A stretch of DNA of 17,497 bases. Source: a virus (lineage: Duplodnaviria; Heunggongvirae; Uroviricota; Caudoviricetes). The notes under the pieces are model-generated. The model was not told the DNA's origin. It worked only from the letters and a program-made list of their open reading frames with translations, and ran no database searches. Location of the stretch: the IMG/VR virus record IMGVR_UViG_2681813135_000005; one strand, given 5' to 3'. Position 1 is the stretch's first letter. Each line of letters opens with the position of its first letter. The position numbers and the translations under genes are program-made. Positions 1,285-17,497 of this stretch are shown here, in pieces.

Positions 1285-1325
1285 AGGTTGCTCCGGGCTA
1301 TGAAATAGAAAAATGAATCCGTTGA

Positions 1326-1418
1326 AGCCTGCTTTTTTATACTAAGTTGGCATTATAAAAAAGCATTGCTTATCAATTTGTTGCAACGAACAGGTCACTA
1401 TCAGTCAAAATAAAATCA
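1326..1418. other. attL: Lambda attL: 15-bp core GCTTTTTTATACTAA (1331-1345) plus P' arm with Int arm-type and IHF sites
   Basis: Exact lambda core sequence read in the window. The following GTTGGCATTATAAAAAAGCATTGCTTATCAATTTGTTGCAACGAACAGGTCACTATCAGTCAAAATAAAATCATTATTTG is the well-known lambda P' arm, the same sequence used in Gateway attL/attP sites. Confidence 0.9.
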
Positions 1419-2489: not shown

Positions 2490-2685
2490 TTCTGATCCTC
2501 TTCAAAAGGCTACCTGTTACTGGTCGATTTAAGTCAACCTTTACCGCTGATTCGTGGAACAGATATTCTCTTCCATCCTTAACCGGAGGAGGGAATATCC
2601 TGCATTCGCGCACCCATCGACGAACTGTTTCAAGGCTTCTTGGGCGTCGCTGGCGAGCGTTCCACTCCTGAAGTGTCAAGTACAT
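2467..2685 (-). CDS. xis: Lambda-type excisionase
   Basis: 72-aa ORF MYLTLQEWNARQRRPRSLETVRRWVRECRIFPPPVKDGREYLFHESAVKVDLNRPV..., matching lambda Xis in sequence and length. 3' end overlaps the int start. Confidence 0.9.
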   Translation of the reverse strand: MYLTLQEWNARQRRPRSLETVRRWVRECRIFPPPVKDGREYLFHESAVKVDLNRPVTGSLLKRIRNGKKAKS

Positions 2686-2703
2686 CGCAAAGTCTCCGCA
2701 ATT

Positions 2704-2723
2704 ACACGCAAGAAAAAACCGCC
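2704..2723 (-). terminator. Intrinsic terminator-like hairpin immediately upstream of xis (minus-strand sense)
   Basis: Top strand AAAAAA-CCGCC-ATCA-GGCGG. On the minus strand this is a GC-rich 5-bp stem with 4-nt loop followed by a run of six T. Confidence 0.5.
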
Positions 2724-2905
2724 ATCAGGCGGCTTGGTGTTCTTTCAGTTCTTCAATTCGAATATTGGTTACGTCTGCATGTGCTATCTGCGCCCACAGC
2801 ATCCAGTGGTCATAGCAGTCGCTGATGTTCTCGGCTTCGATAACTCTGTTGAATGGTTCTCCATTCTATTCACCTGTGACTCGGAAGTGCATTTATCATC
2901 TCCAT

Positions 2906-2960
2906 AAAAAAACTCGCCGTAGCGAGTTCAGATAAAAGAAATCCTCGTCAGTGCGAGGAT
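2906..2960 (-). terminator. Tandem intrinsic terminator hairpins (minus-strand sense)
   Basis: Hairpin ATCCTCG-TCAGTG-CGAGGAT (2941-2960) followed on the minus strand by TTCTTTTATC. Hairpin AACTCGC-CGTA-GCGAGTT (2911-2928) followed on the minus strand by TTTTTTT (top-strand A-run 2906-2910). Confidence 0.55.
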
Positions 2961-3132
2961 GCTGTTCATTGCTGCTATACACTTTTTTGCTCTCAACGTA
3001 AGCGGTAGCCCATTCTGTTGGGTTGGTGCAGTTGCTTTTAGGAAATGCTATTTACCCCTTAAATGTCGGCTGAAAGAGCTAAAATCCATGCAAAAAATTT
3101 ACGCAATTTTGTGTATTATTGTGCAGTAAGTA

Positions 3133-3735
3133 ATGAGCTATTTTCTGCGCAAAAAATGGATGGTAAATTTGTCCGGGTCAGGAAAAATTTTATGGGCGCT
3201 AAACATGAAAAAAGATTCGTATCCTTATTTGATTTGCATGACAGTTTCAGGGCTGATCTTTATTTTCCTTTTCTTCTGGTGGCGGGCAGATATCTACAGG
3301 GTCACGTTTCTTAATCAGAGTATATCCCACTATTACATTCTGTTTAGCATGGGAATAGCTTTTCTGTTATCTCTGTTTTGGGTTAAGAAGGGGATAGTAA
3401 AACAAAGCGGCTGGAAGAGTCTGTCAGCATACCTTAAGGTTTATGCAGGGATGTGCATATTTGCTGGATTTTTTCTGATTATACCCCTTACGACACTAAC
3501 TTATTTTTTGCCTGGAGAGACATCGTCTTACGTTGCACCGTATCGGTATACTTCCGGTAGTTCAAAAAGTTGTTCTGGAGCTGAGGTGGATGACCCCGAT
3601 CTACATGAGAATATTCGCATTTGCTATCCGTATGGCAATTATGAGTACGATAATATTATCTATGTTGAAAAGAAAATTAATATATTAGGTGCGGTAGTGA
3701 CATATGCACAGACCGCGCGTGATGATACTGAATGA
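3133..3735 (+). CDS. Hypothetical multi-pass membrane protein (AT-rich accessory gene in the ea/b-region position)
   Basis: 200-aa ORF on the strand opposite int/xis. Long hydrophobic segments (LICMTVSGLIFIFLFFWW, ILFSMGIAFLLSLFWV, AGMCIFAGFFLIIPLTTLTYFL) and a hydrophilic C-terminal domain. Visibly AT-rich. The true start may be an internal ATG at 3160 or 3205 (MKKDSYPYL...); no strong SD at any candidate. Confidence 0.6.
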   Translation: MSYFLRKKWMVNLSGSGKILWALNMKKDSYPYLICMTVSGLIFIFLFFWWRADIYRVTFLNQSISHYYILFSMGIAFLLSLFWVKKGIVKQSGWKSLSAYLKVYAGMCIFAGFFLIIPLTTLTYFLPGETSSYVAPYRYTSGSSKSCSGAEVDDPDLHENIRICYPYGNYEYDNIIYVEKKINILGAVVTYAQTARDDTE

Positions 3736-3769
3736 TATAGTATATAGCGGGCAAGTTTTAGTTAATTTA

Positions 3770-3806
3770 TCGAGGTAATATAATTTACCTCGACTCGTTT
3801 GTTCTG
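3770..3806 (+). terminator. Putative intrinsic terminator downstream of the membrane-protein gene
   Basis: Inverted repeat TCGAGGTAA-TATAAT-TTACCTCGA followed by T-rich CTCGTTTGTTCTGG. Confidence 0.4.
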
Positions 3807-3945
3807 GTATTAATATTTCGCTTTACGACCGATTTTTATCTGATGATATCATGCGGTTTTCATATACTGACTTACTGTCTTTTCTCCGTTAGCGATTTTC
3901 TCCTGCTCAGCGATGATTTTATCTTTGGCTTCTAGTTAATTTCGC

Positions 3946-4167
3946 TCACTTCGAACCTCTCTGTTTACTGATAAGCTCCAGATCTTGCTGGCAACTGGCA
4001 CAAGTCCGACAACCCTGAACGGCCAGTCGTCTTCGTTCATCTATCGGATCGCCACACTCACAACAATGAGTGGCAGATATAGCCTGGTGGTTCAGGCGGC
4101 GCATTTTTATTGCTGTGTTGCGCTGTAATTCTTCAATTTCTGATGCTGAATCAATTATGTCTGCCAT
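3946..4167 (-). CDS. DksA/TraR-family C4 zinc-finger protein (phage-encoded)
   Basis: 73-aa ORF with CxxC...17 residues...CxxC (CCECGDPIDERRRLAVQGCRTCASC), the hallmark of the TraR/DksA zinc-finger family. Confidence 0.75.
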   Translation of the reverse strand: MADIIDSASEIEELQRNTAIKMRRLNHQAISATHCCECGDPIDERRRLAVQGCRTCASCQQDLELISKQRGSK

Positions 4168-4221
4168 CTTTCATTAATCCCTGAATTGTTGGTTAATACG
4201 CTTGAGGGTGAATGCGAATAA

Positions 4222-4243
4222 TAAAAAAGGAGCCTGTAGCTCC
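4222..4243 (-). terminator. Intrinsic terminator (minus-strand sense) at the end of the leftward early operon
   Basis: Top strand AAAAAA-GGAGC-CTGTA-GCTCC. On the minus strand this is stem GGAGC/GCTCC followed by TTTTTTATT; it lies just downstream of the ORF ending at 4266. Confidence 0.6.
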
Positions 4244-4265
4244 CTGATGATTTTGCTTTTCATGT

Positions 4266-4481
4266 TCACCGTTCCTTAAAGACGCCGTTCAACATGCCGA
4301 TCGCCAGGCTTAAATGAGTCGGTGTGAATCCCATCAGCGTTACCGTTTCGCGGTGCTTCTTTAGTACGCTACGGCAAATGTCATCGACGTTTTTATCCGG
4401 AAACTGCTGTCTGGCTTTTTTGATTTCAGAATTAGCCTGACGGGCAATGCTGCGAAGGGCGTTTTCTTGCTGAGGTGTCAT
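4266..4481 (-). CDS. Small early-left protein (lambda orf60a/orf63/orf61-region family)
   Basis: 71-aa product MTPQQENALRSIARQANSEIKKARQQFPDKNVDDICRSVLKKHRETVTLMGFTPTHLSLAIGMLNGVFKER starting at the ATG at 4481. The longer 93-aa reading from 4547 is less likely. Position matches the small ORFs between exo and xis in lambda. Confidence 0.55.
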   Translation of the reverse strand: MTPQQENALRSIARQANSEIKKARQQFPDKNVDDICRSVLKKHRETVTLMGFTPTHLSLAIGMLNGVFKER

Positions 4482-4561
4482 TGAACAAGCCCCATGTCGG
4501 CAAGCATAAGCACACAGAATATGAAGCCCGCTGCCAGAAAAATGCATTCAGTGGTTGTCAT
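4478..4561 (-). CDS. Putative 27-aa hydrophobic micro-protein, translationally coupled on both sides
   Basis: ORF MTTTECIFLAAGFIFCVLMLADMGLVQ. Its ATG overlaps the stop of the upstream ORF (ATGA at 4561-4558) and its TGA overlaps the ATG of the downstream ORF (ATGA at 4481-4478). Below the ORF-track size cut-off. Confidence 0.3.
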   Translation of the reverse strand: MTTTECIFLAAGFIFCVLMLADMGLVQ

Positions 4562-4749
4562 ACCTGGTCTCTCTCATCTGCTTCTGCTTTCGCCACCATC
4601 ATTTCCAGCTTTTGTGAAAGGGATGCGGCTAACGTATGAAATTCTTCGTCTGTTTCTACTGGTATTGGCACAAACCTGACTCCAATTTGAGCGAGGCTAT
4701 GTGCCATCTCGATACTCGTTCTTAATTCAACGGGAGATGCTTTGTGCAT
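4558..4749 (-). CDS. Small early-left protein (lambda orf63-like)
   Basis: 63-aa [40 protein letters not shown]..., in the exo-proximal small-ORF cluster as in lambda. Confidence 0.6.
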   Translation of the reverse strand: MHKASPVELRTSIEMAHSLAQIGVRFVPIPVETDEEFHTLAASLSQKLEMMVAKAEADERDQV

Positions 4750-4910
4750 ACAGCTCCCCGTTTATTATTTATCTCCTCAGCCAGCCGCTGGGCTTTCAGC
4801 GGATTTCGGATAACAGAAAGGCCGGGAAATACCCAGCCTCGCTTTGTAACGGAGTAGACGAAAGTGATCGCGCCTACCCGGATATTATCGTGAGGATGCT
4901 TCATTGCCAT
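4722..4910 (-). CDS. Small early-left protein (lambda orf61-like)
   Basis: 62-aa [34 protein letters not shown]... with SD GGGAG 4 nt upstream of the ATG. Start overlaps the exo stop. Confidence 0.6.
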
Positions 4911-5581
4911 TGCTCCCCATATACAAAACCAATTTCAGCCAGTGCCTCGTCCATTTTTTCGATGAACTCCGGCACCATCTCGTCAAAACTCGCCATGTAC
5001 TTTTCATTCCGCTCAACCACGACGTAATGCAGGCCTTCACGCTTCATGCGCGGGTCATAGTTGGCAAAGTACCAGGCATCTTTTCGCGTCACCCACATGC
5101 TGTACTGCACCTGGGCCATGTAAGCCGATTTTATTGCCTCGAAACCACCGAGCCGGAATTTCATGAAATCCCGGGAGGTAAACGGGCATTTCAGTTCAAG
5201 GCCGTTGCCGTCACTGCATAAACCATCGGGAGAGCAGGCGGTGCGCATATTTTCGTCGCGATAGATGATCGGGGATTCAGTAATATTCACGCCGGAAGTG
5301 AATTCAAACAGGGTTCTGGCGTCGTTCTCGTACTGTTTTCCCCAGGCCAGCGCCTTAGCATTAACTTCCGGAGCCACACCGGTGCAAACCTCAGCCAGCA
5401 GGGTGTGGAAGTAGGACATTTTCATGTCAGGCCACTTCTTTCCTGAGCGGGGCTTTGCTATCACGTTGTGAACTTCTGAAGCGGTGATGACGCCGAGCCG
5501 TAATTTGTGCCATGCATCATCCCCCTGTTCGACAACTCTCACGTCGATCCCGGTACGCTGCAGGATAATGTCCGGTGTCAT
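4901..5581 (-). CDS. exo: Lambda exonuclease (Red-alpha)
   Basis: 226-aa [68 protein letters not shown]..., recognised as lambda Exo. Overlaps bet by ATGA. Confidence 0.95.
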
Positions 5582-6363
5582 GCTGCCACCTTCTGCTCAG
5601 TGGCTTTCTGTTTAAGGAATCCAAGAGCTTTCACTGCTTCGGCCTGTGTCAGTTCTGACGATGCGCGAATGTCGCGGCGAAATATCTGGGAACAGAGCGG
5701 CAATAAGTCGTCATCCCATGTTTTATCCAGGGCGATCAGCAGAGTGTTAATCTCCTGCATGGTTTCATCGTTAACCGGAGTGATGTCGCGTTCCGGCTGA
5801 CGTTCTGCAGTGTATGCAGTATTTTCGACAATGCGCTCGGCTTCATCCTTGTCATAGATACCAGCAAATCCGAAGGCCAGACGGGCACACTGAATCATGG
5901 CTTTATGCCGTAACATCCGTTTGGGATGCGACTGCCACGGCCCCGTGATTTCTCTGCCTTCGCGGGTTTTGAATGGTTCGCGGCGGCATTCATCCATCCA
6001 CTCGGTAACGCAGATCGGATGATTGCGGTCTTTGCGGTAAATCCGGCATGTGCAGGATTCGTTGTCCTGTTCAAAGTCCATGCCGTCAAACTGCTGGTTT
6101 TCGTTGATGATGCGGGACCAGCCATCAACGCCCACCACCGGAACGATGCCGTTCTGCTTATCAGGGAAGGCGTAAATTTCTTTCGTCCACGGATTAAGAC
6201 CGTACTGGTTGGCGACGATCAGCAATGCGATGAACTGCGCATCGCTGGCATCACCTTTAAATGCCGTCTGGCGAAGAGTGGTGATCAGTTCCTGTGGGTC
6301 GACAGAATCCATGCCGACTCGTTCAGCCAGCTTCCCAGCCAGCGTTGCGAGTGCTGTACTCAT
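5578..6363 (-). CDS. bet: Lambda Bet (Red-beta single-strand annealing protein)
   Basis: 261-aa [69 protein letters not shown]..., recognised as lambda Bet. Confidence 0.95.
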
Positions 6364-6368
6364 CCGTT

Positions 6369-6665
6369 TTATACCTCTGAATCAATATCAACCTGGTGGT
6401 GAGCAATGGTTTCAACCATGTACCGGATGTGTTCTGCCATGCGCTCCTGAAACTCAACATCGTCATCAAACGCACGGGTAATGGCTTTTTTGCTGACCCC
6501 GTGGCGTTGCAAATGATCGATGCATAGCGATTCAAACAGGTGCTGGGGCAGGCCTTTTTCCATGTCGTCTGCCAGTTCTGCCTCTTTCTCTTCACGGGCG
6601 ATCTGCTGGTAGTGACGCGCCCAGCTCTGAGCCTCAAGACGATCCTGAATGTAATAAGCGTTCAT
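6369..6665 (-). CDS. gam: Lambda Gam (RecBCD inhibitor), short GamS form
   Basis: 98-aa [59 protein letters not shown]..., matching the C-terminal 98 residues of lambda Gam. The upstream in-frame sequence contains stop codons. Confidence 0.9.
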
Positions 6666-6740
6666 GGCTGAACTCCTGAAAATGGCTGTGAAAATATCGC
6701 CCGCGAAATGCCAGGCTGATTAGGAAAACAGGAAAGGGGA

Positions 6741-7031
6741 TTAGTGATTCAGGCCGTTACCGCGTCCGTCGAGAAAAACTTCTACGAGCAAATCACGGGT
6801 ATAAGTGCGCTCGATGCCGCGATGCAGATAAAGCCGTCCGCGTAAATTAGCTGATGCAGTCCAGGTACCATCTTTGTGTTTGACCAGCATTCCTGGCATG
6901 ACCGCACCGCGATTAACGGTCTGCGTTCCGTAATGTTGATGAACCATAAAAACTCCTGCCCGTAAGCTGGGCTGCTGAACATATAGAGACTTCTGCGCGT
7001 ATTCAGGCGGTGGATGGCCGCCGGTTGTCAT
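6741..7031 (-). CDS. Hypothetical early protein, first ORF of the leftward (pL-like) operon, in the kil/cIII position
   Basis: 96-aa reading from the ATG at 7031 ([20 protein letters not shown]...[15 protein letters not shown]) with GAGGCGG upstream. The ORF track extends it to a TTG at 7151 (136 aa); that extension carries an Arg-rich stretch RLRGVRGVKRTRERR. Function not recognised. Confidence 0.4.
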
Positions 7032-7151
7032 AACTAAGCCGCCTCGTTGAAGCGACTGAGGTATAAAGTGTTGTGTTGATTTCAGCTGGTCACACCGACG
7101 TTCACGCGTCCGTTTCACCCCTCGCACTCCCCGAAGCCTGCTGAAATTCAA

Positions 7152-7310
7152 ACTGCGGATCTAAGCGGTCATCGCAACGGTGAAACAGGTGGTTACCGTA
7201 TCGTTGTGTCGTTGCGATGAATTTAATTTAAAACTATAGTTGTTTTATCGTCAACAACAAAAGTTGTTTTGTCGGTTGTTTTAAATATAACTGGTTGTAT
7301 TTAGGATGGA
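7152..7310 (-). promoter_or_regulatory. Leftward early promoter (pL-like) with OL-like operator repeats and a structured 5' leader
   Basis: Minus-strand TTGACG (7254-7249), 17-nt spacer, TTAAAT (7231-7226). Repeated AACAAC/GTTGTT-containing sites (AAAACTATAGTTGTTTT, CAACAAAAGTTGTTTT, CGGTTGTTTT, CTGGTTGTATTT). 10-bp perfect inverted repeat CATCGCAACG...CGTTGCGATG (7170-7219) begins at the predicted transcript start. Confidence 0.5.
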
Positions 7311-7393
7311 TTTATTTTGTGACTTGCATCGCATAGCGATAACTGAAGTGAGGTGTGGTGGTTTTTTGGACGGTATGAGTTATGAGGGGGAGG

Positions 7394-7420
7394 AAAAGAA
7401 AACCCGGCGCGGTTGCCGGG
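7394..7420 (-). terminator. Intrinsic terminator after the immunity-region lipoprotein gene
   Basis: Top strand AAAAGAAAA-CCCGGC-GCGGTT-GCCGGG. On the minus strand this is a GC-rich stem followed by TTTTCTTTT, placed 9 nt after the lipoprotein stop codon. Confidence 0.7.
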
Positions 7421-7428
7421 TATGATTA

Positions 7429-7809
7429 TCAGTCAGCCCAACCTGATTTCGAGTTTATTTGGGTTTCTGACATTGTGTATTTCTTAATCGTGTCATCGTT
7501 AAAAAGAATAGTAAGTTCTTTTTTCGTACCGTTCGTTCCATTATGGAATAATCCATAGAATGGAATAAAAGTGGTGCCATTAACTTTTACTTTTGCAAAG
7601 GCGTACTTCCAGATCTCGTTTCCACTGTCAGTATATGAAACAGCATCAGGAGAACCAAAGTAAGATTTAACCTCATTCTTGGTTGTTTTACCTTCCTGAA
7701 GTTTAGACTGGACACTAATTTCAGTTTCATTTTTGAGTTGCTGGTTGCCTGAAGAAGCACACCCAGCCAATACAGATGCCATCATGGCAGCGATTAGGAT
7801 TTTTCTCAT
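7429..7809 (-). CDS. Phage-encoded lipoprotein (SmpA/OmlA/BamE-like motif) in the rexAB position
   Basis: 126-aa ORF with signal peptide and lipobox (MRKILIAAMMASVLAGC). Segment KNEVKSYFGSPDAVSYTDSGNEIWKY resembles the BamE/SmpA-OmlA fold motif. AT-rich. Lies between the repressor gene and OL with its own terminator. Confidence 0.75.
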   Translation of the reverse strand: MRKILIAAMMASVLAGCASSGNQQLKNETEISVQSKLQEGKTTKNEVKSYFGSPDAVSYTDSGNEIWKYAFAKVKVNGTTFIPFYGLFHNGTNGTKKELTILFNDDTIKKYTMSETQINSKSGWAD

Positions 7810-8038
7810 TTTATGTTTCCATTCATTATAATCAGAAACATCTTAACATAATGATTCGAAATAAAAACCGCTACGAGATAGGGGGACATTTTGCTGACAG
7901 TAGCAACAAATCTCAGCTAACAACGAGAATATTTACTGAAATATGCAAACAGATTTGGCGTTCTTATAGAGAATTTAGTGCAATATCTAATCCGAGTGGT
8001 ATAAACCTTAACCTTCGCTCCCTTAAGTCGTAGATAAA

Positions 8039-8728
8039 TTAACCATGCTTCCTGTACGTCTGCGGCATGCTTCCAATGACCTTACCGAATATGAACACCC
8101 GGTTCATCTCGTCTTTCTCGATCGGGTCCCACGGCGAGTAGCTCTTGTTATCAGAGATAACCAGCAGCTTATCCTTCATCATTTGAAGACGTTTTACATG
8201 GGCAGTGTCGTCGTACAGAAACGCATAGATGCCATCACCGTCGAAAGATTTAACAGTGATATCAACGAACAGCAGGTCACCTGGTTCGATCGTCCCTGAC
8301 ATGCTGTCACCTCGCACGTTAATGATGCGGATATTTTCCGCCTTCCTGCCATCGAACATGTGACGAGCATCGTCAAACGAGTACTCAACCGAGCGTAGAA
8401 CTTCTACAAACTCACGGTTGATTACACCTGGCCCGGCACTGACTTCTATATCAAGAACGTCAATTTTGAAGTATTTGGAATGGCTGACAGTTGATTGTAT
8501 TGGTTGCACTGTACTGTCTGACATATTTCCAACGCCAGAAGATAACCATTCTGCGCGCACACCCAAAGCGTTCGCGATCTCCACGATTTTAGTTGTTTGG
8601 TTAGCTTTCCCTGTTTCGATTTTCTGAATAGCAGCCTGGCTAACCCCGACCAAATCCCCAAGCGCCTTTTGTGTAAGGCCTCGCGCTAATCTGGCTTCTT
8701 TAAGTCTTTCTGAGAGTGTTGTTTTCAT
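8039..8728 (-). CDS. CI-type prophage repressor (N-terminal HTH, C-terminal LexA/S24-like autoproteolysis domain)
   Basis: 229-aa ORF. N-terminal HTH (LTQKALGDLVGVSQAAIQKIETGK); C-terminal S24-like region with NVRGDSMSGTIEPGDLLFVD and a downstream lysine (HVKRL). No SD before the ATG, consistent with a leaderless pRM-type transcript. Not lambda cI. Confidence 0.85.
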   Translation of the reverse strand: MKTTLSERLKEARLARGLTQKALGDLVGVSQAAIQKIETGKANQTTKIVEIANALGVRAEWLSSGVGNMSDSTVQPIQSTVSHSKYFKIDVLDIEVSAGPGVINREFVEVLRSVEYSFDDARHMFDGRKAENIRIINVRGDSMSGTIEPGDLLFVDITVKSFDGDGIYAFLYDDTAHVKRLQMMKDKLLVISDNKSYSPWDPIEKDEMNRVFIFGKVIGSMPQTYRKHG

Positions 8729-8832
8729 AGATCAAATGTACAACCAAGGTTTTATTTCATCAAACGAAAATGGTTGTTGACTAAAAACAACCATAGTTTT
8801 AATCTTTATTCGGATTAACCACGGAGGTTGTT
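8729..8832. promoter_or_regulatory. Divergent pRM/pR-like promoter region with OR-like operators
   Basis: Between divergent repressor and cro-like genes. Sites AAAATGGTTGTTGAC and AACAACCATAGTTTT (reverse complement AAAACTATGGTTGTT, one mismatch from the OL site AAAACTATAGTTGTT). Plus-strand TTGACT, 17-nt spacer, TTAATC, then GGAGG and the ATG at 8833. Confidence 0.55.
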
Positions 8833-9063
8833 ATGAACCCAGCAATCAAAACAGCGATCAATATCGTTGGTTCACAAAAGAAACTAGGCGATGCCTGCGA
8901 AGTTTCACAGCAGGCCGTCTATAAGTGGCTTCACAACAAAGCAAAGGTATCCCCTGAACATGTCGGCAGCATTGTTACGGCTACTGGTGGAGTTGTGAAG
9001 GCATACCAGATTCGCCCGGATCTTCCGAAGTTGTTTCCACACACCGAAAAGAACGCAGCTTAA
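8833..9063 (+). CDS. Cro-like HTH regulator (YdaS/Cro family)
   Basis: 76-aa ORF with SD GGAGG. HTH-like segment KKLGDACEVSQQAVYKWLHNK. Divergent from the repressor gene, in the cro position. Confidence 0.65.
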   Translation: MNPAIKTAINIVGSQKKLGDACEVSQQAVYKWLHNKAKVSPEHVGSIVTATGGVVKAYQIRPDLPKLFPHTEKNAA

Positions 9064-9132
9064 ATTTCCATTTCACGCTCTTTAACAATAAGCAATCAAC
9101 TTAACAGTCAATTCAAACTAAAGGAGTCAATT

Positions 9133-9672
9133 ATGCAACCACTTACATACCAACAGACTAGCGGATTTATTCCGACTGCGGTGATAAATCGTTCTCAAAC
9201 AAAACAAGCTCCAGGCCACGAAAAAATCCGTGATGCCGTCCGCGCCTGGTCGGCTGTAGATAATCAGGATGTCGTTGCCGCACTCATTGTGAATGAGTAT
9301 CGGGAGCAGGGCGACGGCACCATCGATTTCCCTGATGATGTCAGCCGTGCACGCCAGAAGCTGTTCCGCTTCCTCGATAACAAATTCGATTCTGAAAAAT
9401 ACCGAAATAACGTGCGTGAACTGACCCCGGCAATTCTGGCGGTACTACCGCTGGAATATCGCGGTTACCTGGTTGAGCAGGATAGCTTCATGACTCGGTT
9501 GGCTGAAATGGAAAAGGAACTCAGTGAGGCAAAACAGGCTGTCATTCTCAACGCACCACGCCACCAGAAACTGAAGGAAATGAGTGAAGGTATTGTGTCG
9601 ATGTTTCGTGTGGACCCGGATCTGGCTGGTCCATTAATGGCGATGGTGACCACCATGCTGGGGGCAATATGA
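9133..9672 (+). CDS. YdaT-like protein in the cII position
   Basis: 179-aa ORF with SD AAGGAG. Contains LTPAILAVLPLEYRGYL, which resembles what I recall of the Rac-prophage YdaT family. Sits between cro-like and O. Confidence 0.5.
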   Translation: MQPLTYQQTSGFIPTAVINRSQTKQAPGHEKIRDAVRAWSAVDNQDVVAALIVNEYREQGDGTIDFPDDVSRARQKLFRFLDNKFDSEKYRNNVRELTPAILAVLPLEYRGYLVEQDSFMTRLAEMEKELSEAKQAVILNAPRHQKLKEMSEGIVSMFRVDPDLAGPLMAMVTTMLGAI

Positions 9673-9758
9673 CAGGTTCAGAAATGGCGAAAGTCGGTCT
9701 GCGGGAACAGAACCGACTTTCAGGTGCAAATCGTAACACACTCATTGCGGGAGGAATT

Positions 9759-10688
9759 ATGGCAAACACTGCTGAGATATTCAATTTTCCAGTGCCGGAT
9801 GCGGCACAAAAGGAGCCGCGCGTGGCAGATCTCGATGATGGTTATACGCGCATTGCAAATGAGTTGCTGGAAGCTGTGATGCTGGCCGGATTAACACAGC
9901 ACCAGCTTCTGGTCTTCCTGGCTGTCATGCGCAAAACATATGGCTTTAATAAAAAACTGGATTGGGTGAGCAACGAGCAACTTTCCGAGTTGACCGGGAT
10001 ATTGCCGCACAAGTGTTCTGCTGCAAAAAGTGTTCTGGTAAAGCGTGGGATTTTTATTCAGAGCGGGCGGAATATCGGCATTAATAATGTGGTCAGTGAA
10101 TGGTCAACATTACCCGAATCAGGTAAGAAAAATAAAGTTTACCTGAAAGAGGTAAATTTACCTGAATCAGGTAAGAAAAGTTTACCCAAATCAGGTAAAG
10201 GCACTTACCCGAATCAGGTAAACACAAAATACAAACTAACAAAAGACAATATAAAACCTTTTTCGTCCGAGAATTCTGGCGAATCCTCTGACCAACCAGA
10301 AAACGATCTTCCTGTGGAGAAACCAGATGCTGCAATTCAGAGCGGCAGCAGGTGGGGGACAGCAGAAGACCTGACCGCCGCAGAGTGGATGTTTGACATG
10401 GTGAAGACCATCGCGCCATCAGCCAGAAAACCGAATTTTGCAGGGTGGGCTAACGATATCCGCCTGATGCGTGAACGTGACGGCCGTAACCACCGCGACA
10501 TGTGCGTGCTGTTCCGCTGGGCATGCCAGGACAACTTCTGGTCCGGTAACGTGCTAAGTCCGGCCAAACTCCGCGACAAGTGGACCCAACTCGAAATCAA
10601 CCGTAACAAGCAACAGGCTGGCGTGATAGCCGGAAAATCAAAACTCGACCTGACAAACACTGACTGGATTTACGGGGTGGATTTATGA
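9759..10688 (+). CDS. O: Replication initiator O (divergent N-terminal origin-binding domain, lambda-like C-terminal domain)
   Basis: Start at the ATG at 9759 (SD GGAGG at 9749-9753), giving MANTAEIFNFPVPDAAQKEPRVADLDDGYTRIANELLEAVMLAGLTQHQLLVFLAVMRKTYGFNKK..., which aligns with the lambda O N-terminus. The C-terminal half (...SSENSGESSDQPENDL...WMFDMVKTIAPSARKPNFAGWANDIRLMRERDG...) is lambda-like. Iterons lie inside the gene. The track's 9669 start is an unlikely extension. Confidence 0.9.
   Translation: MANTAEIFNFPVPDAAQKEPRVADLDDGYTRIANELLEAVMLAGLTQHQLLVFLAVMRKTYGFNKKLDWVSNEQLSELTGILPHKCSAAKSVLVKRGIFIQSGRNIGINNVVSEWSTLPESGKKNKVYLKEVNLPESGKKSLPKSGKGTYPNQVNTKYKLTKDNIKPFSSENSGESSDQPENDLPVEKPDAAIQSGSRWGTAEDLTAAEWMFDMVKTIAPSARKPNFAGWANDIRLMRERDGRNHRDMCVLFRWACQDNFWSGNVLSPAKLRDKWTQLEINRNKQQAGVIAGKSKLDLTNTDWIYGVDL
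10110..10262. repeat. Phage replication origin: five iterons plus AT-rich region inside O
   Basis: Iterons TTACCCGAATCAGGTAAG (10110), TTTACCTGAAAGAGGTAAA (10138), TTTACCTGAATCAGGTAAG (10157), TTTACCCAAATCAGGTAAA (10181), CTTACCCGAATCAGGTAAA (10204), each an inverted repeat TTACC...GGTAA. Followed by AT-rich CACAAAATACAAACTAACAAAAGACAATATAAAACC. Confidence 0.8.
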
Positions 10689-11386
10689 AAAACATCGCCG
10701 CACAGATGGTTAACTTTGACCGTGAGCAGATGCGCCGGATCGCCAACAACATGCCGGAACAGTACGACGAAAAGCCGCAGGTACAACAGGTAGCGCAGAT
10801 CATCAATGGTGTGTTCAGCCAGTTACTGGCAACTTTCCCGGCGAGCCTGGCTAACCGGGACCAGAACGAACTGAACGAAATCCGCCGCCAGTGGGTTCTG
10901 GCTTTCCGGGAAAACGGGATCACCACGATGGAACAGGTTAACGCAGGAATGCGCGTAGCCCGTCGGCAGAATCGACCATTCCTGCCATCACCCGGGCAGT
11001 TTGTTGCCTGGTGCCGGGAAGAAGCATCCGTTACCGCCGGGCTGCCAAACGCCAGCGAGCTGGTTGATATGGTTTACGAGTATTGCCGGAAACGTGGCCT
11101 GTATCCAGATGCAGAGTCTTATCCGTGGAAATCAAACGCGCACTACTGGCTGGTTACCAACCTGTATCAGAACATGCGGGCCAATGCGCTGACTGATGCG
11201 GAATTACGGCGCAAGGCTGCCGATGAACTGGCCTGTATGACAGCGCGAATTAACCGTGGTGAGGCGATACCTGAACCAGTAAAACAACTTCCTGTCATGG
11301 GCGGGAGACCGCTTAATCGTGTTCAGGCTCTGGCGAAGATCGCAGAAATCAAAGCGAAGTTTGGGCTGAAAGGAGCAAGTGTATGA
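10685..11386 (+). CDS. P: Replication protein P (DnaB helicase loader)
   Basis: 233-aa ORF MKNIAAQMVNFDREQMRRIANNMPEQYDEKPQVQQVAQIINGVFSQLLATFPASLANRDQNE..., recognised as lambda P. ATGA overlap with O. Confidence 0.95.
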   Translation: MKNIAAQMVNFDREQMRRIANNMPEQYDEKPQVQQVAQIINGVFSQLLATFPASLANRDQNELNEIRRQWVLAFRENGITTMEQVNAGMRVARRQNRPFLPSPGQFVAWCREEASVTAGLPNASELVDMVYEYCRKRGLYPDAESYPWKSNAHYWLVTNLYQNMRANALTDAELRRKAADELACMTARINRGEAIPEPVKQLPVMGGRPLNRVQALAKIAEIKAKFGLKGASV

Positions 11387-11670
11387 CGGGCAAAGAGGCA
11401 ATTATTCATTACCTGGGGACTCATAAGAACTTCTGTGCGCAGGACGTTGCCGCGGTAACAGGCGCAACCGTAACCAGCATAAATCAGGCTGCGGCTAAAA
11501 TGGCGCGGTCAGGAATCCTGGTCGTTGATGGTAAGGTCTGGCGAACGGTGTATTACCGGTTCGCTACCAGAGAAGAACGGGAAGGAAAGGTGAGCACGAA
11601 TCTGATTTTTAAGGAGTGTCGTCAAAGTGCCGCGATGAAGCGGGTGTTGGCTTTATATGGAAGAGAGTAG
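11383..11670 (+). CDS. ren: Ren protein
   Basis: 95-aa ORF MTGKEAIIHYLGTHKNFCAQDVAAVTGATVTSINQAAAKMARSGILVVDGKVWRTVYYRFATREEREGK..., recognised as lambda-type Ren. ATGA overlap with P. Confidence 0.85.
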   Translation: MTGKEAIIHYLGTHKNFCAQDVAAVTGATVTSINQAAAKMARSGILVVDGKVWRTVYYRFATREEREGKVSTNLIFKECRQSAAMKRVLALYGRE

Positions 11671-11734
11671 GTATGAGCAATTATTGTTACTAATTTTAGT
11701 TTTACGACATTCGTGATAACTAAATAATTGATGT

Positions 11735-11989
11735 GTGGAACTGAATTATAAAGGGGATGATGTTTTGGGAAATAAAGAAAATATCGATTGTAAGCACACA
11801 AGAAGCTCATGCTATAAAAACAAGCAGATGAAAGATGTTATTTATATTACATTGCCTAAACTCACTGAAGAAGAAGTAGAAATTTTTAAGGGACCAATGC
11901 ATAAAGCATTGCTTGCAGGGATAAATGTTACAAAAAAGGCAGTTTCTGATGCCCTGCTAAACAAAGGGATAAAAGTTGAATTTAAATAG
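11735..11989 (+). CDS. Hypothetical small protein in the AT-rich cargo insertion (start uncertain)
   Basis: 84-aa ORF from a GTG at 11735, or 53 aa from the ATG at 11828 (MKDVIYITLPKLTEEEVEIFKG...). No clear SD for either. A 24-codon ORF with strong SD AAGGGGA starts at 11757 in another frame. Confidence 0.3.
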   Translation: MELNYKGDDVLGNKENIDCKHTRSSCYKNKQMKDVIYITLPKLTEEEVEIFKGPMHKALLAGINVTKKAVSDALLNKGIKVEFK

Positions 11990-12005
11990 AGTAATTCAGT
12001 GGCAA

Positions 12006-12033
12006 CAATAGCACTCATTTGTGAGTGCTATTG
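12006..12033. terminator. Hairpin between convergent cargo ORFs (putative bidirectional terminator)
   Basis: Perfect 12-bp inverted repeat CAATAGCACTCA-TTTG-TGAGTGCTATTG between the stop of the small plus-strand ORF (11989) and the stop of the 472-aa minus-strand ORF (12041). Followed on the plus strand by AAATTTATT. Confidence 0.5.
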
Positions 12034-12040
12034 AAATTTA

Positions 12041-13459
12041 TTAGAAAATAATGTTTGCTATATCCGAGATAGCATTTAAAGAACCTCTGTGGTCACTTCC
12101 TGTTTTAGGTAAAATATAGGAATATCGAGGGTCTTCATTATATGTTAACTTCCAGTGTTTTCCATCGCTTGACGCACTGAAACCTAAGTCCTTTAAATTT
12201 CTTTGTGTTGCGCTATCCATGCTTCTGTAACCTGTTAAAGTCCTTTTAAGTAATTGGCGGCGACTCTCGGTTTCTTTATTGTATTCATTATTGGCAATTA
12301 GGGATGATAAGATATGGTAGCTTCTACCAAATTCATTTTTATTTTTTATGGCAGTTTTTAGTGCGTCAATAATTATATTTTTGATTTCTCCATCAAAAAA
12401 ATCAGTCTCTTCACCAGCATTAAGCACAATGCTTCCTTGGGCTGAAGCTTGTGATTGAAGAGTGCGTACTCTGTGCTCTAAAGAGGAGATCTTATGCTTA
12501 AGATCTTCTATTTGGTCATCTTTCGCAACATTATCGGCTTCGTAAAGCGCCATCAGTTCGCGTGTGTATTCTCCTCTTTCTTTGAGTGAGTTAATAGAGT
12601 CTTTCGTTTTTCTGGTTTGTATCTCACTCCATCCACTATCTGAGACAGGAGCCATTGTAGTCGTAGCTCTTACAACATCATCAAATAACTCATCTTCAAA
12701 TTCTTTTGCGGTTTTCTCACCACGGCGATAAAAACTGATATTTTGACCCCGTGGCCAATAGATACCAACAGCACCAGCATAGGCATTTTTAGCATTTGTC
12801 TCATTTTTTAGCTTAATAGAAAATAGTCTATTGCTAGGCTCAATTAATACATGTGCTAATCCGCATACCTTTCTTGCAAGGCGTTCTGGGATGATATTGT
12901 GAGCATGTTCATTAAAAAAATACTTGGAGCTAACGTATATTATTGGTAGTCTGTTGTCAGTTTCACCATTTATAACTTTAGCTGCTATATTTAAATGTTC
13001 ATCAGTATCATCTAAGGAATGAGGTTCGACTGACACCTTGAAAATATCATCAAGACCACCAGAAAATTTATCAATCAATCTCATAACAACTAATGGTTTC
13101 TTAGGTTGCGGGGCTAGATAAGCTGCATCTTGGCTTACAACGCTAGATTCCACCTGAATCCACATGGTATCAGTTTTGAGATTTTTATTAATTGAAATAT
13201 CTGTTACCCATTTGTGTGGCTCAGATATTTTCGAATACCTAAAACAGCCTAAACTAGTATCTTTGTTTTTATAAGTTATTATATCAATTCTTTCATTTTT
13301 AGACTCTATGAAGTACTCCTCGCTTTTATAATCACATACTAATTGTGCTGGAATAAAAGTTGTATGTGGTGAGTCGTTTACCCAAGAAAAACATTCATTA
13401 AAGATCTCAGCTAGAGATGTGGAGTTTGAAACATAAAAACCAGTTGAGAAATATTTCAT
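12041..13459 (-). CDS. Large hypothetical protein (472 aa) of unrecognised family: cargo gene at the ren/ninB junction, candidate phage-defence or abortive-infection factor
   Basis: Uninterrupted 472-codon ORF with SD AAGGAA 5 nt before the ATG at 13459. Markedly AT-rich compared with flanking ren and ninB-like genes and transcribed against them. Central predicted coiled-coil (DDQIEDLKHKISSLEHRVRTLQSQASAQ) between an N-terminal region of about 290 aa and a C-terminal region of about 130 aa. No family recognised by eye. Confidence 0.8.
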   Translation of the reverse strand: MKYFSTGFYVSNSTSLAEIFNECFSWVNDSPHTTFIPAQLVCDYKSEEYFIESKNERIDIITYKNKDTSLGCFRYSKISEPHKWVTDISINKNLKTDTMWIQVESSVVSQDAAYLAPQPKKPLVVMRLIDKFSGGLDDIFKVSVEPHSLDDTDEHLNIAAKVINGETDNRLPIIYVSSKYFFNEHAHNIIPERLARKVCGLAHVLIEPSNRLFSIKLKNETNAKNAYAGAVGIYWPRGQNISFYRRGEKTAKEFEDELFDDVVRATTTMAPVSDSGWSEIQTRKTKDSINSLKERGEYTRELMALYEADNVAKDDQIEDLKHKISSLEHRVRTLQSQASAQGSIVLNAGEETDFFDGEIKNIIIDALKTAIKNKNEFGRSYHILSSLIANNEYNKETESRRQLLKRTLTGYRSMDSATQRNLKDLGFSASSDGKHWKLTYNEDPRYSYILPKTGSDHRGSLNAISDIANIIF

Positions 13460-13476
13460 GAAATTTCCTTATTAAA

Positions 13477-13494
13477 AATGAGATTAATCTCATT
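13477..13494 (-). promoter_or_regulatory. 18-bp perfect palindrome in the 5' region of the 472-aa gene (operator or attenuator-like hairpin)
   Basis: AATGAGATTAATCTCATT is its own reverse complement. It lies 18-35 nt upstream of the start codon; on the minus strand it is followed by TTTTT and then the SD. Confidence 0.45.
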
Positions 13495-13734
13495 GGCTAT
13501 GATAATTGTTACCCTCCTTTGGATCTAGTGTTCATTTGACATAAGAACCTATTGATTCATCATAATCAACTCGCCATAATCATGTCATCGGAGCCTGAAC
13601 AACTCCGGTGACTTCTGCGCTTTGAGGGGACTCAAAGTGCAAACGACAATCAGAACACCTTTCAACCAGTCACAGATGCAGAAATGCACCTGCGATATCT
13701 TGCATCCAACGTTTGACCTCTGCGGAGGTGAAGC

Positions 13735-14190
13735 GTGAACCTCCCACAAGATGGTATCAAATTGCATCGCGGTAACTTCACCGCTATCGGTCGGCAGATC
13801 CAGCCTTATCTGGAGGACGGCAAATGCTTTCGCATGGTGCTTAAACCGTGGCGCGAGAGACGCAGTCTTTCCCAGAATGCACTCAGCCACATGTGGTACA
13901 GCGAAATCAGTGAATACCTCATCAGCAAGGGTAAAACGTTCGCCACTCCAGCTTGGGTAAAAGATGCTCTCAAACACACATATCTCGGTTATGAAACCAA
14001 AGACCTGGTTGATGTCGTAACCGGTGATATCACCACTATCCAGTCGTTACGCCATACCTCCGATCTTGATACCGGAGAGATGTATGTCTTCCTGTGTAAG
14101 GTTGAAGCCTGGGCGGTGAATATTGGCTGCCACCTGACTATTCCGCAGAGCTGCGAGTTCCAGCTGCTCCGCGACAAGCAGGAGGCGTAA
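13735..14190 (+). CDS. ybcN: NinB/YbcN-like protein (nin-region recombination/DNA-binding family)
   Basis: 151-aa ORF from GTG at 13735 with SD GGAGG. Sequence recalled as DLP12 YbcN-like; [17 protein letters not shown] parallels lambda NinB RSLDQNRKLW. Confidence 0.7.
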
Positions 14191-14360
14191 TGGCTACACC
14201 GCTTATTCGTGTCATGAACGGACACATCTACAGAGTACCAGATCGTCGTAAGCGTAAACCGGAGCTGAAGCCTTCCGAAATACCAACACTGCTCGGATAT
14301 ACCGCCAGCCTGGTTGATAAAAAATGGTTGCGACTGGCAGCAAGGAGGAATCATGGCTGA
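14190..14360 (+). CDS. ninE: NinE-like small protein (56 aa)
   Basis: [64 protein letters not shown] overlap with the upstream gene, SD GGAGG, and ATGGCTGA overlap with the downstream gene. Below the ORF-track cut-off. Confidence 0.7.
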   Translation: MATPLIRVMNGHIYRVPDRRKRKPELKPSEIPTLLGYTASLVDKKWLRLAARRNHG

Positions 14361-14643
14361 TTTGAGAAAAGCAGCGCGTAGTCGGGAATGCCAGGTAAGA
14401 ATCCCTGGCGTATGTAATGGCAACCCTGAAACGTCTGTACTGGCACATATCCGGCTGACTGGATTGTGCGGCACCGGTACCAAACCGCCAGACCTGATTG
14501 CCACCATTGCATGTTCTGCCTGCCACGACGAAATCGACCGCCGCACACATTTTGTCGATGCTGCATATGCAAAAGAATGCGCGCTGGAAGGTATGGCGAG
14601 AACACAGGTTATCTGGCTGAAAGAGGGGGTTATTAAGGCGTGA
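14353..14643 (+). CDS. ybcO: YbcO-like Cys-rich protein (DUF1364-type, putative zinc-binding nuclease)
   Basis: Start at the ATG at 14353 preceded by AGGAGG, giving [64 protein letters not shown].... Conserved Cys/His pattern. Confidence 0.7.
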
Positions 14644-15002
14644 ATACCTACAGCATCACATTACCCTGGCCTCCGAGCAATAATCGCTATTACCGCCATA
14701 ATCGCGGGCGCACGCACGTCAGCGCAGAGGGGCAGGCATACCGCGATAACGTCGCCCGAATCATTAAAAACGCAATGCTGGATATCGGCCTGGCTATGCC
14801 TGTGAAAATCCGCATTGAGTGCCACATGCCGGATCGCCGTCGCCGTGACCTGGATAATCTGCAAAAAGCCGCTTTTGACGCACTCACTAAAGCAGGTTTC
14901 TGGCTGGATGATGCTCAGGTCGTTGATTACCGCGTTGTGAAGATGCCTGTTACCAAAGGTGGGAGGCTGGAACTGACCATCACCGAAATGGGGAATGAAT
15001 GA
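14640..15002 (+). CDS. rusA: RusA Holliday-junction resolvase
   Basis: 120-aa [107 protein letters not shown]..., recognised as E. coli/lambdoid RusA. Confidence 0.9.
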
Positions 15003-15139
15003 TGTTTGAGTTTTATATGGCAGAACGTCTTCGCCACCGCTGGGGGCGTCTGCGCTTATATCGTTTCCCCGGTTCTGTTTTGACCGATTACCGAATACTG
15101 AAGAATTACGCCAAAACCCTGACAGGAGCAGGAGTATGA
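14999..15139 (+). CDS. ylcG: YlcG-like small protein (46 aa)
   Basis: [49 protein letters not shown] overlapping the rusA stop (ATGA). Resembles DLP12 YlcG as recalled. Below the ORF-track cut-off. Confidence 0.6.
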
Positions 15140-15224
15140 AGTCAGAGATAACAATCAACTAATACTGTTTTGTTGATTTTTGCTTGTAATTGGCGTTCTG
15201 GTCTGATTTTTGTGGAGTAAGTTG

Positions 15225-15272
15225 ATGCGTGATATTCAGATGGTTCTTGAGCGTTGGGGAGCGTGGGCGGCT
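15225..15272 (+). CDS. Late antiterminator Q (QuuD-like), 5' fragment only, cut by the assembly gap
   Basis: ATG at 15225 encodes MRDIQMVLERWGAWAA, recalled as the N-terminus of a Q-type antiterminator, then runs into N at 15273. The position after rusA-ylcG is as in DLP12. Confidence 0.5.
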
Positions 15273-15282
15273 ANNNNNNNNN
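15273..15282. other. Assembly gap (10 N) joining prophage sequence to an unrelated chromosomal locus
   Basis: Literal run of 10 n characters. Phage genes on the left, host REP/terminator/yidB on the right. Confidence 0.95.
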
Positions 15283-15318
15283 NAATCTTGCAATGTATTG
15301 AATTTTCATGATTTTGTA

Positions 15319-15349
15319 GGCCGGATAAGGCGTTCACGCCGCATCCGGC
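15319..15349. repeat. REP (repetitive extragenic palindromic) element
   Basis: GGCCGGATAAGGCGTTCACGCCGCATCCGGC matches the enterobacterial REP consensus in reverse orientation. Confidence 0.75.
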
Positions 15350-15366
15350 AAGAAGCTATAAGAAAA

Positions 15367-15395
15367 GGGCGGAGATCATCTCCGCCCTTTTTATT
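15367..15395 (+). terminator. Intrinsic terminator upstream of yidB (likely terminator of the preceding host gene, gyrB in E. coli K-12 order)
   Basis: GGGCGGAGAT-C-ATCTCCGCCC perfect stem followed by TTTTTATTT. Confidence 0.75.
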
Positions 15396-15469
15396 TCTGC
15401 AATCCGCAATTATCATCCCGCAAATCTATACTTTTTGGGTCAACACGTAACGCTTTACAGGTGATTATC

Positions 15470-15868
15470 ATGGGGCTTTTTGATGAAGTTGTCGGTGCCT
15501 TTCTGAAAGGCGATGCGGGGAAATATCAGGCTATTTTAAGTTGGGTTGAGGAGCAGGGCGGCATTCAGGTGCTGCTGGAAAAACTGCAAAGTGGCGGCTT
15601 AGGGGCCATTCTCTCAACCTGGCTGAGTAATCAACAGGGCAATCAATCGGTTAGTGGCGAGCAACTGGAATCGGCGCTCGGCACAAATGCGGTGTCCGAT
15701 CTTGGACAAAAACTTGGCGTGGATACCAGTACAGCTTCCAGTTTACTGGCAGAACAATTGCCGAAGATTATTGATGCGCTCTCACCGCAAGGTGAAGTGT
15801 CTCCACAAGCCAATAACGATCTGCTTTCCGCAGGCATGGAACTGCTGAAAGGGAAACTCTTCCGCTAA
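15470..15868 (+). CDS. yidB: YidB (DUF937 family protein)
   Basis: 132-aa product MGLFDEVVGAFLKGDAGKYQAILSWVEEQGGIQVLLEKLQSGGLGAILSTWLSN... from the ATG at 15470, recognised as E. coli YidB. The track's GTG at 15461 adds three residues. Confidence 0.85.
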   Translation: MGLFDEVVGAFLKGDAGKYQAILSWVEEQGGIQVLLEKLQSGGLGAILSTWLSNQQGNQSVSGEQLESALGTNAVSDLGQKLGVDTSTASSLLAEQLPKIIDALSPQGEVSPQANNDLLSAGMELLKGKLFR

Positions 15869-15880
15869 GCAAATGGGGAG

Positions 15881-15910
15881 CATGCAACCCGCGTTGCATC
15901 CCCCTTTTCC
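15881..15910 (+). terminator. Putative terminator or attenuator hairpin between yidB and yidA
   Basis: ATGCAAC-CCGC-GTTGCAT hairpin followed by CCCCCTTTTCCC. Confidence 0.35.
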
Positions 15911-15982
15911 CTCGGGTGTTGTACTGATTTTTGAGCGGAATCGCGTTAGCATGGGTCAGGAACTAATCTACCTGGGGAACTC

Positions 15983-16795
15983 ATGGCTATCAAACTCATT
16001 GCTATCGATATGGATGGCACCCTTCTGCTACCCGATCACACCATTTCACCCGCCGTTAAAAATGCGATTGCCGCAGCTCGCGCCCGTGGCGTGAATGTCG
16101 TGCTAACGACGGGTCGCCCTTATGCAGGTGTTCACAATTACCTGAAAGAGCTGCATATGGAACTGCCGGGCGACTACTGCATTACTTATAACGGCGCGCT
16201 GGTACAGAAGGCCGCTGATGGTAGCACCGTGGCGCAAACCGCTCTCAGCTATGACGACTACCGTTTCCTGGAAAAACTCTCTCGCGAAGTCGGTTCTCAT
16301 TTCCACGCCCTGGACCGCACCACGCTGTACACCGCCAACCGTGATATCAGCTACTACACGGTGCATGAATCCTTCGTTGCCACAATTCCGCTGGTGTTCT
16401 GCGAAGCGGAGAAAATGGACCCCAATACCCAGTTCCTGAAAGTGATGATGATTGATGAACCCGCCATCCTCGACCAGGCTATCGCGCGTATTCCGCAGGA
16501 AGTGAAAGAGAAATATACCGTGCTGAAAAGTGCGCCGTACTTCCTCGAAATCCTCGATAAACGCGTTAACAAAGGTACGGGGGTGAAATCACTGGCCGAC
16601 GTGTTAGGTATTAAACCGGAAGAAATCATGGCGATTGGCGATCAGGAAAACGATATCGCAATGATTGAATATGCAGGCGTCGGTGTGGCGATGGATAACG
16701 CTATTCCTTCAGTGAAAGAAGTGGCGAACTTTGTCACCAAATCTAACCTTGAAGATGGCGTGGCGTTTGCTATTGAGAAGTATGTGCTGAATTAA
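15983..16795 (+). CDS. yidA: HAD-superfamily (Cof-type) sugar phosphatase YidA
   Basis: 270-aa ORF MAIKLIAIDMDGTLLLPDHTISPAVKNAIAAARARGVNVVLTTGRPYAGVHNYL... with HAD motif I DMDGTLL and a C-terminal GDQENDIAM motif. Recognised as E. coli YidA. Confidence 0.9.
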   Translation: MAIKLIAIDMDGTLLLPDHTISPAVKNAIAAARARGVNVVLTTGRPYAGVHNYLKELHMELPGDYCITYNGALVQKAADGSTVAQTALSYDDYRFLEKLSREVGSHFHALDRTTLYTANRDISYYTVHESFVATIPLVFCEAEKMDPNTQFLKVMMIDEPAILDQAIARIPQEVKEKYTVLKSAPYFLEILDKRVNKGTGVKSLADVLGIKPEEIMAIGDQENDIAMIEYAGVGVAMDNAIPSVKEVANFVTKSNLEDGVAFAIEKYVLN

Positions 16796-16840
16796 TCTGT
16801 GGGCGGGCAAACAGCATAAACGCGTTTGCCCGCTTACTGA

Positions 16841-17497
16841 TTATTGGTTTACTGCATATACAACCAGAAATTGCAGCGGTGCAGTAATGATGTCCAGCGT
16901 AACAGTCACTGGCAGTAATGCTGCGGAAACACCATCCGGAATGCCTCTGGGTGAATAGTATTCATAAAATCGCACTTTAAATGGATGGTAGAACGCCATC
17001 ACCTTTGAGTAATCCATGTTTTTATTTTTCTCATGGATTGTGCCTTTTAGGTTTTCCAGTGACCTGGTACAGTGTTGAACACCACAGGCAAAACCATAAT
17101 GCGTTGCCAGTGCCTTTTCTTCTTCGTTATTCCAGTAGTAGTAAAGCGATATTGTGCCGGTAAATTTCTTTTTCCCCGCATTTAAAACAAATCTTGCGTC
17201 ATCGGCAACCTGAATATTGTGCCGGTTAAGTGCTGGATCATTGAGCATCTTAACGATGTCATCGGCACCATCAGTGATAAGGTAATCCAGCGATTCCCCT
17301 ACAAAAACATAGCCTTTTGTTCCATTACTATCTTTTGCCTGCGATAGCCCAGTGATGGTGTCTGACTGCGATTGATACTTTCCTGAACTACCCTTTGCGG
17401 TATGGGAAACCAGAGCATACGAGATACAGCCTGAAAGCATCAGCGCCAGTGGGAATAAACCGGCAGCCTTAAAAAATCCCTTAAAATTCAACTTCAT
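16841..17497 (-). CDS. yidX: Predicted lipoprotein YidX
   Basis: 218-aa ORF starting at the last base of the window (ATG 17497..17495), [24 protein letters not shown]... with lipobox. Gene order yidB-yidA-yidX matches the E. coli chromosome. Confidence 0.8.

Follow-up and report, generated by a model that had tools for sequence, protein, structure and literature searches.

Does the DNA considered here, a window of 17,497 nt in which a lambdoid prophage is followed by 10 Ns and then by the chromosomal genes yidB, yidA, and yidX, describe the order of genes in a bacterial chromosome or the way in which a draft genome was put together? The N run almost certainly is a spacer joining two contigs of a draft Escherichia coli assembly and does not represent a biological junction. 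This reading follows from the identity of each flank with its own native locus, from the fact that the flanks are not neighbors in complete genomes, and from clonal sibling assemblies, in which the break recurs and is followed by other partners.

The source record and its two flanks

The window corresponds to positions 2,166,112-2,183,608 of the GenBank WGS record JRRS01000180.1, with 0 mismatches in 17,497 nt, and this record belongs to the draft assembly GCA_001413485.1. The 10 Ns are the sole non-ACGT run of the window, and its features are collected in Table 1 together with the corresponding ends in sibling assemblies. Sequence archives recognize 10 N as the minimum gap, and Velvet writes any estimated gap under 10 bp as 10 N; by such assembler conventions, a 10-N run can represent a very small estimated gap. 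The run is of a fixed length, since every gap in the sibling loci likewise consists of exactly 10 N. The use of 10 Ns for marking scaffolding gaps is documented as a generic statement (bioRxiv 10.1101/2021.10.11.463225), and literature searches on the WGS prefixes yielded no publication or description of the assembly method for the JRR and JRS series.

Table 1. Features of the 17,497-nt window and course of the equivalent locus in sibling assemblies (positions of siblings are given as window equivalents).
Feature or assembly	Position	Strand	Evidence or content
ybhC	1..1284	(-)	427-aa ORF; same annotation in JS01 and K-12; chromosomal gene left of attB-lambda
lambda att core GCTTTTTTATACTAA (attL)	1331..1345	(+)	sole exact match in window; 0 expected by chance
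Lambdoid prophage, left and early arm	1419..15139		Pfam matches; collinear with JS01, EFF60, and PhiR26_1 annotations; source-record gene calls
Q (QuuD-type) antiterminator, 5' fragment	15225..15273	(+)	49 nt = 16 codons + 1 base; left contig end
10-N run, almost certainly a spacer between separately assembled contigs	15274..15283		exactly 10 N; same in JRRS01000180.1
gyrB-yidB BIME, right-hand part	15284..15349	(+)	right contig start; left REP and gyrB 3' end missing
BIME linker, single copy	15284..15319	(+)	
REP hairpin	15320..15349	(+)	fold dG -20.9 kcal/mol, z -4.3
Intrinsic-terminator-like hairpin and T run	15362..15392	(+)	14-bp stem; fold dG -23.3 kcal/mol, z -5.95
yidB	15470..15868	(+)	PF20159; ATCC 8739 and K-12 annotation
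yidA (HAD sugar phosphatase)	15983..16795	(+)	Hydrolase_3 PF08282, 4e-67
yidX	16841..17497	(-)	annotation
JRSK	left end 15207		10 N, then truncated tRNA gene beside asnB-nag
JRSD	left end 15265		10 N, then yhdP-rng-mre
JRRY	left end 15265		10 N, then lysis and cold-shock region of another prophage
JRRZ	left end 15269		10 N, then gltP-nrf
JRRJ	left end 15269		10 N, then another prophage, reversed
JRSE	left end 15271		10 N, then nanR-nanA
JRSG	left end 15271		10 N, then DUF1435-fhuF-dnaT
JRSL01000235	ends at 15271		free 5,560-nt contig; no partner
JRRN, JRRM	read through, no Ns		complete Q of 127 aa and porin, plus holin-lysozyme-Rz in JRRM; JS01 and PhiR26_1 are collinear here
JRSN	reads through, no Ns		Q of 125 aa (second allele) followed by lipocalin gene; same arrangement in EFF60

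The left contig contains ybhJ, ybhC, attL, and the early region of the prophage. Prophage genes are arranged in the order int-xis-exo-bet-gam-kil-cI-cro-cII-O-P-ren-ybcN-ninE-ybcO-rusA-ylcG, as they are in annotated prophages of complete genomes and in phage PhiR26_1, and a 472-aa orphan is encoded between ren and ybcN. The repressor is of the S24 type, and O, P, and RusA are also recognized by Pfam. The integrase is of the lambda type with an arm-binding domain (PF09003 and PF00589) and is encoded adjacent to ybhC. Integration at attB-lambda is evident from the lambda-type Int and Xis beside ybhC and from the 15-bp att core. No second att core that could mark attR is present anywhere in the window and, as the right flank is wholly chromosomal, neither late genes nor any other phage DNA are found in the window to the right of the gap. 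The initial annotation had stated that late genes and attR are not represented, and this is correct.

The same annotation had proposed that Q is cut by the N run after 16 codons, which agrees with what is observed. The ATG at 15225 opens MRDIQMVLERWGAWAA, and 16 codons plus one base (A, 15273) precede the Ns. These 49 nt and the spacer upstream of them recur unchanged at the start of Q in EFF60, JS01, PhiR26_1, and three GTDB genomes, where the gene is intact and encodes 125-127 aa. Since the intact homolog of EFF60, which shares these 49 nt, scores 2e-51 on the Pfam family Phage_antitermQ (PF06530), the fragment is the start of a Q gene. A full-length Q would be a protein of about 118 aa that matches the PF06530 profile; the window has 16 codons, and the fragment as written is not a functional member of the family. 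When contigs of GTDB species representatives, among which the source record does not figure, were scanned with the last 82 nt of the left flank, three matches were obtained, all of which continue into an intact Q. Public gene calls of the source record list a 16-aa partial Q "gene" that ends at the gap and matches PF06530 weakly (source-record locus 15467-15515); the artifact has therefore spread into protein databases. Gap-crossing ORFs had been predicted to be artifacts, and the ORF at 15229-15450 of the mechanical ORF list, which runs across the Ns, is indeed artifactual and meaningless.

On the other side of the gap, the 2,214 nt at positions 15284-17497 are 100% identical to E. coli ATCC 8739 throughout, and the match begins 53 nt past the gyrB stop codon. 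A REP element, a terminator, and the genes yidB, yidA, and yidX had been announced for this flank; the REP and a terminator-like hairpin were recovered by folding and the genes by Pfam or annotation. The first REP of ATCC 8739 sits within the 53 nt after the gyrB stop, and the right flank of the window begins 4 nt past that REP. The hairpin at 15320-15349 and this upstream partner in ATCC 8739 together make up a BIME. REP elements are multi-copy, and queries containing the REP match a median of at least about 37-40 places per genome. The hairpin at 15362-15392 stands downstream of gyrB in intact genomes, gyrB itself lying outside the window. It was seen by folding and is not listed by the consensus terminator scan, which may have a blind spot near N runs or for stems that are extended by A-U pairs. 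The gyrB-yidB BIME is polymorphic (window 15284-15322; ATCC 8739 locus 2948-3000): the right contig opens with a 39-nt linker, a single-copy sequence that is present in only 2,702 of 5,426 complete genomes. In some complete genomes, IS1 or IS200 is inserted in or near yidB.

Neighbors of the flanks in finished genomes and in clonal siblings

Among 5,426 complete E. coli genomes, none has the two flanks adjacent to each other, adjacency being defined as a place that covers at least 80% of a junction-spanning query, and gyrB, the BIME, and yidB are contiguous in 5,325 of them. Each flank agrees with its native locus right up to the Ns, and this combination of collinear flanks that are never adjacent characterizes an assembly artifact. 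Signs of a real rearrangement are missing: the Ns interrupt the joint, and no end of an IS or other mobile element and no other foreign DNA are found at either edge of the gap. In K-12, ybhC is located at 805,998-807,281 (ybhC/attB-lambda region, 805,998-807,433) and yidB at 3,877,067-3,877,465 beside gyrB (3,877,067-3,880,119). The initial annotation was therefore right in placing the yidB locus next to gyrB and far from attB-lambda, as the shorter arc between ybhC and yidB measures 1.57 Mb. Moreover, the relative orientation of the two loci in K-12 is opposite to that in the window, and a real joint would therefore need an inversion leaving very unequal replichores.

The most telling evidence comes from sibling assemblies of the same organism, NCBI WGS assemblies JRRJ to JRSN, which were reached via exact matches of protein sequences of the window in public assemblies. 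Over 13-15 kb of ybhC and prophage, thirteen siblings do not differ from the window at a single position, and they therefore represent one clone. In eight other scaffolded siblings, a 10-N gap occurs at the equivalent of positions 15207-15271 and is followed by different loci (Table 1). Including the window itself, breaks fall at 15207-15273, that is within 66 nt, and at least eight partners are joined (at least seven if the partner in the window is left out). One further sibling has a free contig end at this point, and three siblings read through it. As the break recurs within 66 nt in assemblies of one clone and the partner is different each time, it is a property of the assemblies and not of the chromosome. 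The earlier proposal that the juxtaposition is a scaffolding join thus holds for the join being a product of assembly. Its statement that the prophage is truncated holds only for the record, as siblings read through to Q, porin, and lysis genes. Sibling assemblies carry Q, porin, lysis, and tail fragments and indicate that the organism possesses Q and late genes.

Implausible joins are not confined to this locus. Truncated nikC-nikD-nikE-nikR genes follow the prophage porin in one case and, in another, reversed tail T and chaperone genes stand beside gmhB. Near its end, the 4.67-Mb record JRRN01000033 contains four pieces of 112-121 nt that are chained by 10 N. The non-syntenic 10-N joins of which these are examples lie in the sibling loci L021 (17755-20930), L022 (18865-19923), and L024 (19393-19402). 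Scaffolding is to be regarded as unreliable throughout the JRRJ-JRSN series.

Ends of the contigs and rival explanations

Why would the left contig stop at this point in so many assemblies? The two Q alleles of the siblings share their initial 83 nt, up to the window equivalent of 15307, without a difference and diverge by about 8% thereafter. One allele encodes 127 aa and is followed by the porin (loci L021 and L022, 15467-15850), the other one encodes 125 aa and is followed by the lipocalin gene (L024, 15467-15844). In different siblings, each of them is contiguous with the same left arm, free of SNPs, and probably at least one of the two read-throughs is chimeric. Position 15207 is polymorphic; from 15208 onward, EFF60 and JS01 match exactly. 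Complete genomes have a median of 3 places (maximum 11) with DNA of the Q-porin-lysis type and a median of 1 for the nin region immediately before it. The partners joined in JRRY and JRRJ reveal that the clone has other lambdoid prophages. Most likely, other lambdoid or cryptic prophages of this genome contain near-identical copies of the Q region, which short reads could not cross, so that a short-read assembler would lose its path inside the first 80 nt or so of Q. We infer such a repeat as the cause of the left break, the second copy of Q being taken from sibling assemblies.

The left ends at 15207, 15265, 15269, 15271, and 15273 all have the same parity. This is suggestive of ends at a constant plus an odd k that was chosen per sample, and fits a repeat overlap of k-1 on the left. 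An equivalent overlap of k-1 was considered for the start of the right contig and was rejected, as the 39 nt with which this contig opens are a single-copy sequence in complete genomes. The right contig may start where it does owing to low coverage, to trimming, or to an insertion in the BIME that is specific to the strain.

Taken together, the left contig would stop 49 nt into Q, the right contig would start inside the gyrB-yidB BIME, and the assembly pipeline would have set these two non-neighboring contigs side by side, separated by 10 Ns. The chromosome itself most likely has an intact Q followed by the late region of the prophage, and gyrB ahead of yidB. As regards the cause of the break and the type of joining software, both are inferred by us. 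A variant of this reading holds that the join, still artifactual, arose when contigs were simply strung together or ordered with a 10-N linker of fixed length and not by scaffolding with read pairs. It would agree with record lengths of 1-4.7 Mb, with the short pieces split by 10 N at the end of JRRN01000033, with gaps of exactly 10 N throughout these loci, and with partners that look arbitrary. However, dozens to hundreds of records exist per assembly (numbers up to 246, with free contigs of 5.6 and 17 kb), which is more like the output of a scaffolder, and we consider concatenation possible, yet the less probable course. It is a sub-variant that does not contradict the proposed explanation, and the join is an artifact either way.

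The alternative to an artifactual join would be a real junction, caused by a strain-specific large rearrangement such as an inversion between IS or prophage copies in Q and in the gyrB-yidB spacer, with a short repeat hidden by the Ns. Read pairs may have lent the join some support during scaffolding, 10 Ns can stand for a very small estimated gap, and the orientation of the flanks would keep both of them on the leading strand, as an inversion across origin or terminus would. Yet the breakpoint would have to coincide within a few bases with a generic break of the sibling assemblies, where clonal siblings stop within the same 66 nt and are joined to no fewer than seven further loci, or continue across Q. 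Nor is the adjacency known from any of the 5,426 complete genomes, and the gap edges display neither an IS end nor novel sequence. On K-12 coordinates, an inversion from 0.81 Mb to 3.88 Mb would leave replichores of about 0.85 and 3.8 Mb, and a strong imbalance of replichores is strongly deleterious. A real junction is therefore very improbable, and more improbable still is a genuine fusion of the Q region to the gyrB-yidB spacer in the strain of GCA_001413485.1 through a rearrangement spanning about 1.6 or 3.1 Mb, the Ns lying over a short repeat. Least credible of all is that the Ns mask 10 real bases and that the prophage is truly deleted from codon 17 of Q onward and fused to the region upstream of yidB. 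The contig collection is described as having some stretches masked as N runs, which could speak for masking; the same 10 Ns are nevertheless present in the independently retrieved GenBank copy, and masking is rejected for this reason. In addition, unrelated partners follow 10-N runs at the corresponding position of sibling records, and ten bases could restore neither the frame of Q nor the 53 nt that separate the right flank from the gyrB stop.

Accepting the N run as a contig-join spacer has practical consequences. As it stands, the record misleads annotators into a prophage that is truncated in Q and devoid of late genes and attR, into a seemingly novel gene neighborhood of Q and yidB, and into spurious ORFs across the gap. 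JRRS01000180.1 and the JRRJ-JRSN records are to be split at every 10-N run before prophage completeness, synteny, or rearrangements are called. The value of the case lies in quality control only, as it concerns a database artifact and no biological novelty. It resembles the scaffold gaps and repeat-induced misjoins of other short-read drafts in its fixed N run, in flanks that are collinear with references and not with each other, and in a break at multi-copy prophage DNA that recurs in independent assemblies of one clone. There is no difference in kind from ordinary scaffold gaps; what is unusual is the clarity of the case, provided by at least 13 clonal siblings with different partners.

Related prophages and further genes of the early arm

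Prophages and phages related to that of the window illustrate what the record lacks. E. coli JS01, which has a closely related prophage at ybhC, matches 90% of window positions 1-15273 (ybhC and prophage) at 98.3% identity, and phage PhiR26_1 matches 67% of the window prophage at 98.1%. Past the break point, both encode Q, porin, holin, lysozyme, and Rz, and JS01 encodes terminase, head, and tail genes as well. Both are complete across Q, in contrast to the window record. DLP12, the cryptic prophage of E. coli K-12, has the genes ybcN-ninE-ybcO-rusA-ylcG-quuD-nmpC-essD-rrrD and thereby the same order of the nin region and a Q of the quuD type. The 127-aa allele of the siblings and its upstream spacer match the quuD region of DLP12 exactly over 583 nt, from ylcG to quuD. 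The truncation of DLP12 in the 565-586 kb interval of K-12 is due to real deletions and IS5 and is found in continuous sequence, whereas that of the window prophage coincides with Ns and a contig end, in a prophage with a lambda-type Int at ybhC/attB-lambda.

Three further observations concern genes of the early arm. The genes at 8833-9063 (+) and 9133-9672 (+), in the positions of cro and cII, carry the Pfam names YdaS_toxin and YdaT_toxin. Their PHROGs are a Cro-like repressor and a CII-like activator, and the annotation of PhiR26_1 calls them Cro and cII; the libraries disagree in naming, which does not constitute evidence for a toxin-antitoxin pair.

A 200-aa ORF at 3133-3735 (+) is located between xis and ea-type genes on the strand opposite to the early-left operon. 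It has no match in PADLOC, and the gene call at the sibling locus has no Pfam family on record. Only its C-terminal 88 aa match phrog_1416, of unknown function (7e-51). Among the loci examined, the ORF is present in the JR-prefixed sibling assemblies and absent from other relatives of the prophage.

The 472-aa orphan at 12041-13459 (-) lies on the opposite strand in the "moron" slot from ren to nin, which in phage PhiR26_1 is occupied by the defense gene PD-lambda-1. An identification as PD-lambda-1 was rejected, as the two have no sequence similarity despite the common slot. The orphan has no Pfam match, and its PHROG match, of unknown function, comprises the final 57 aa only. A weak PADLOC match (1e-9, residues 83-334) connects it to the candidate defense family HEC-07, and exactly the same protein is widespread, occurring in 888 blocks of the collection. 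The orphan is a candidate for a prophage-encoded defense gene.
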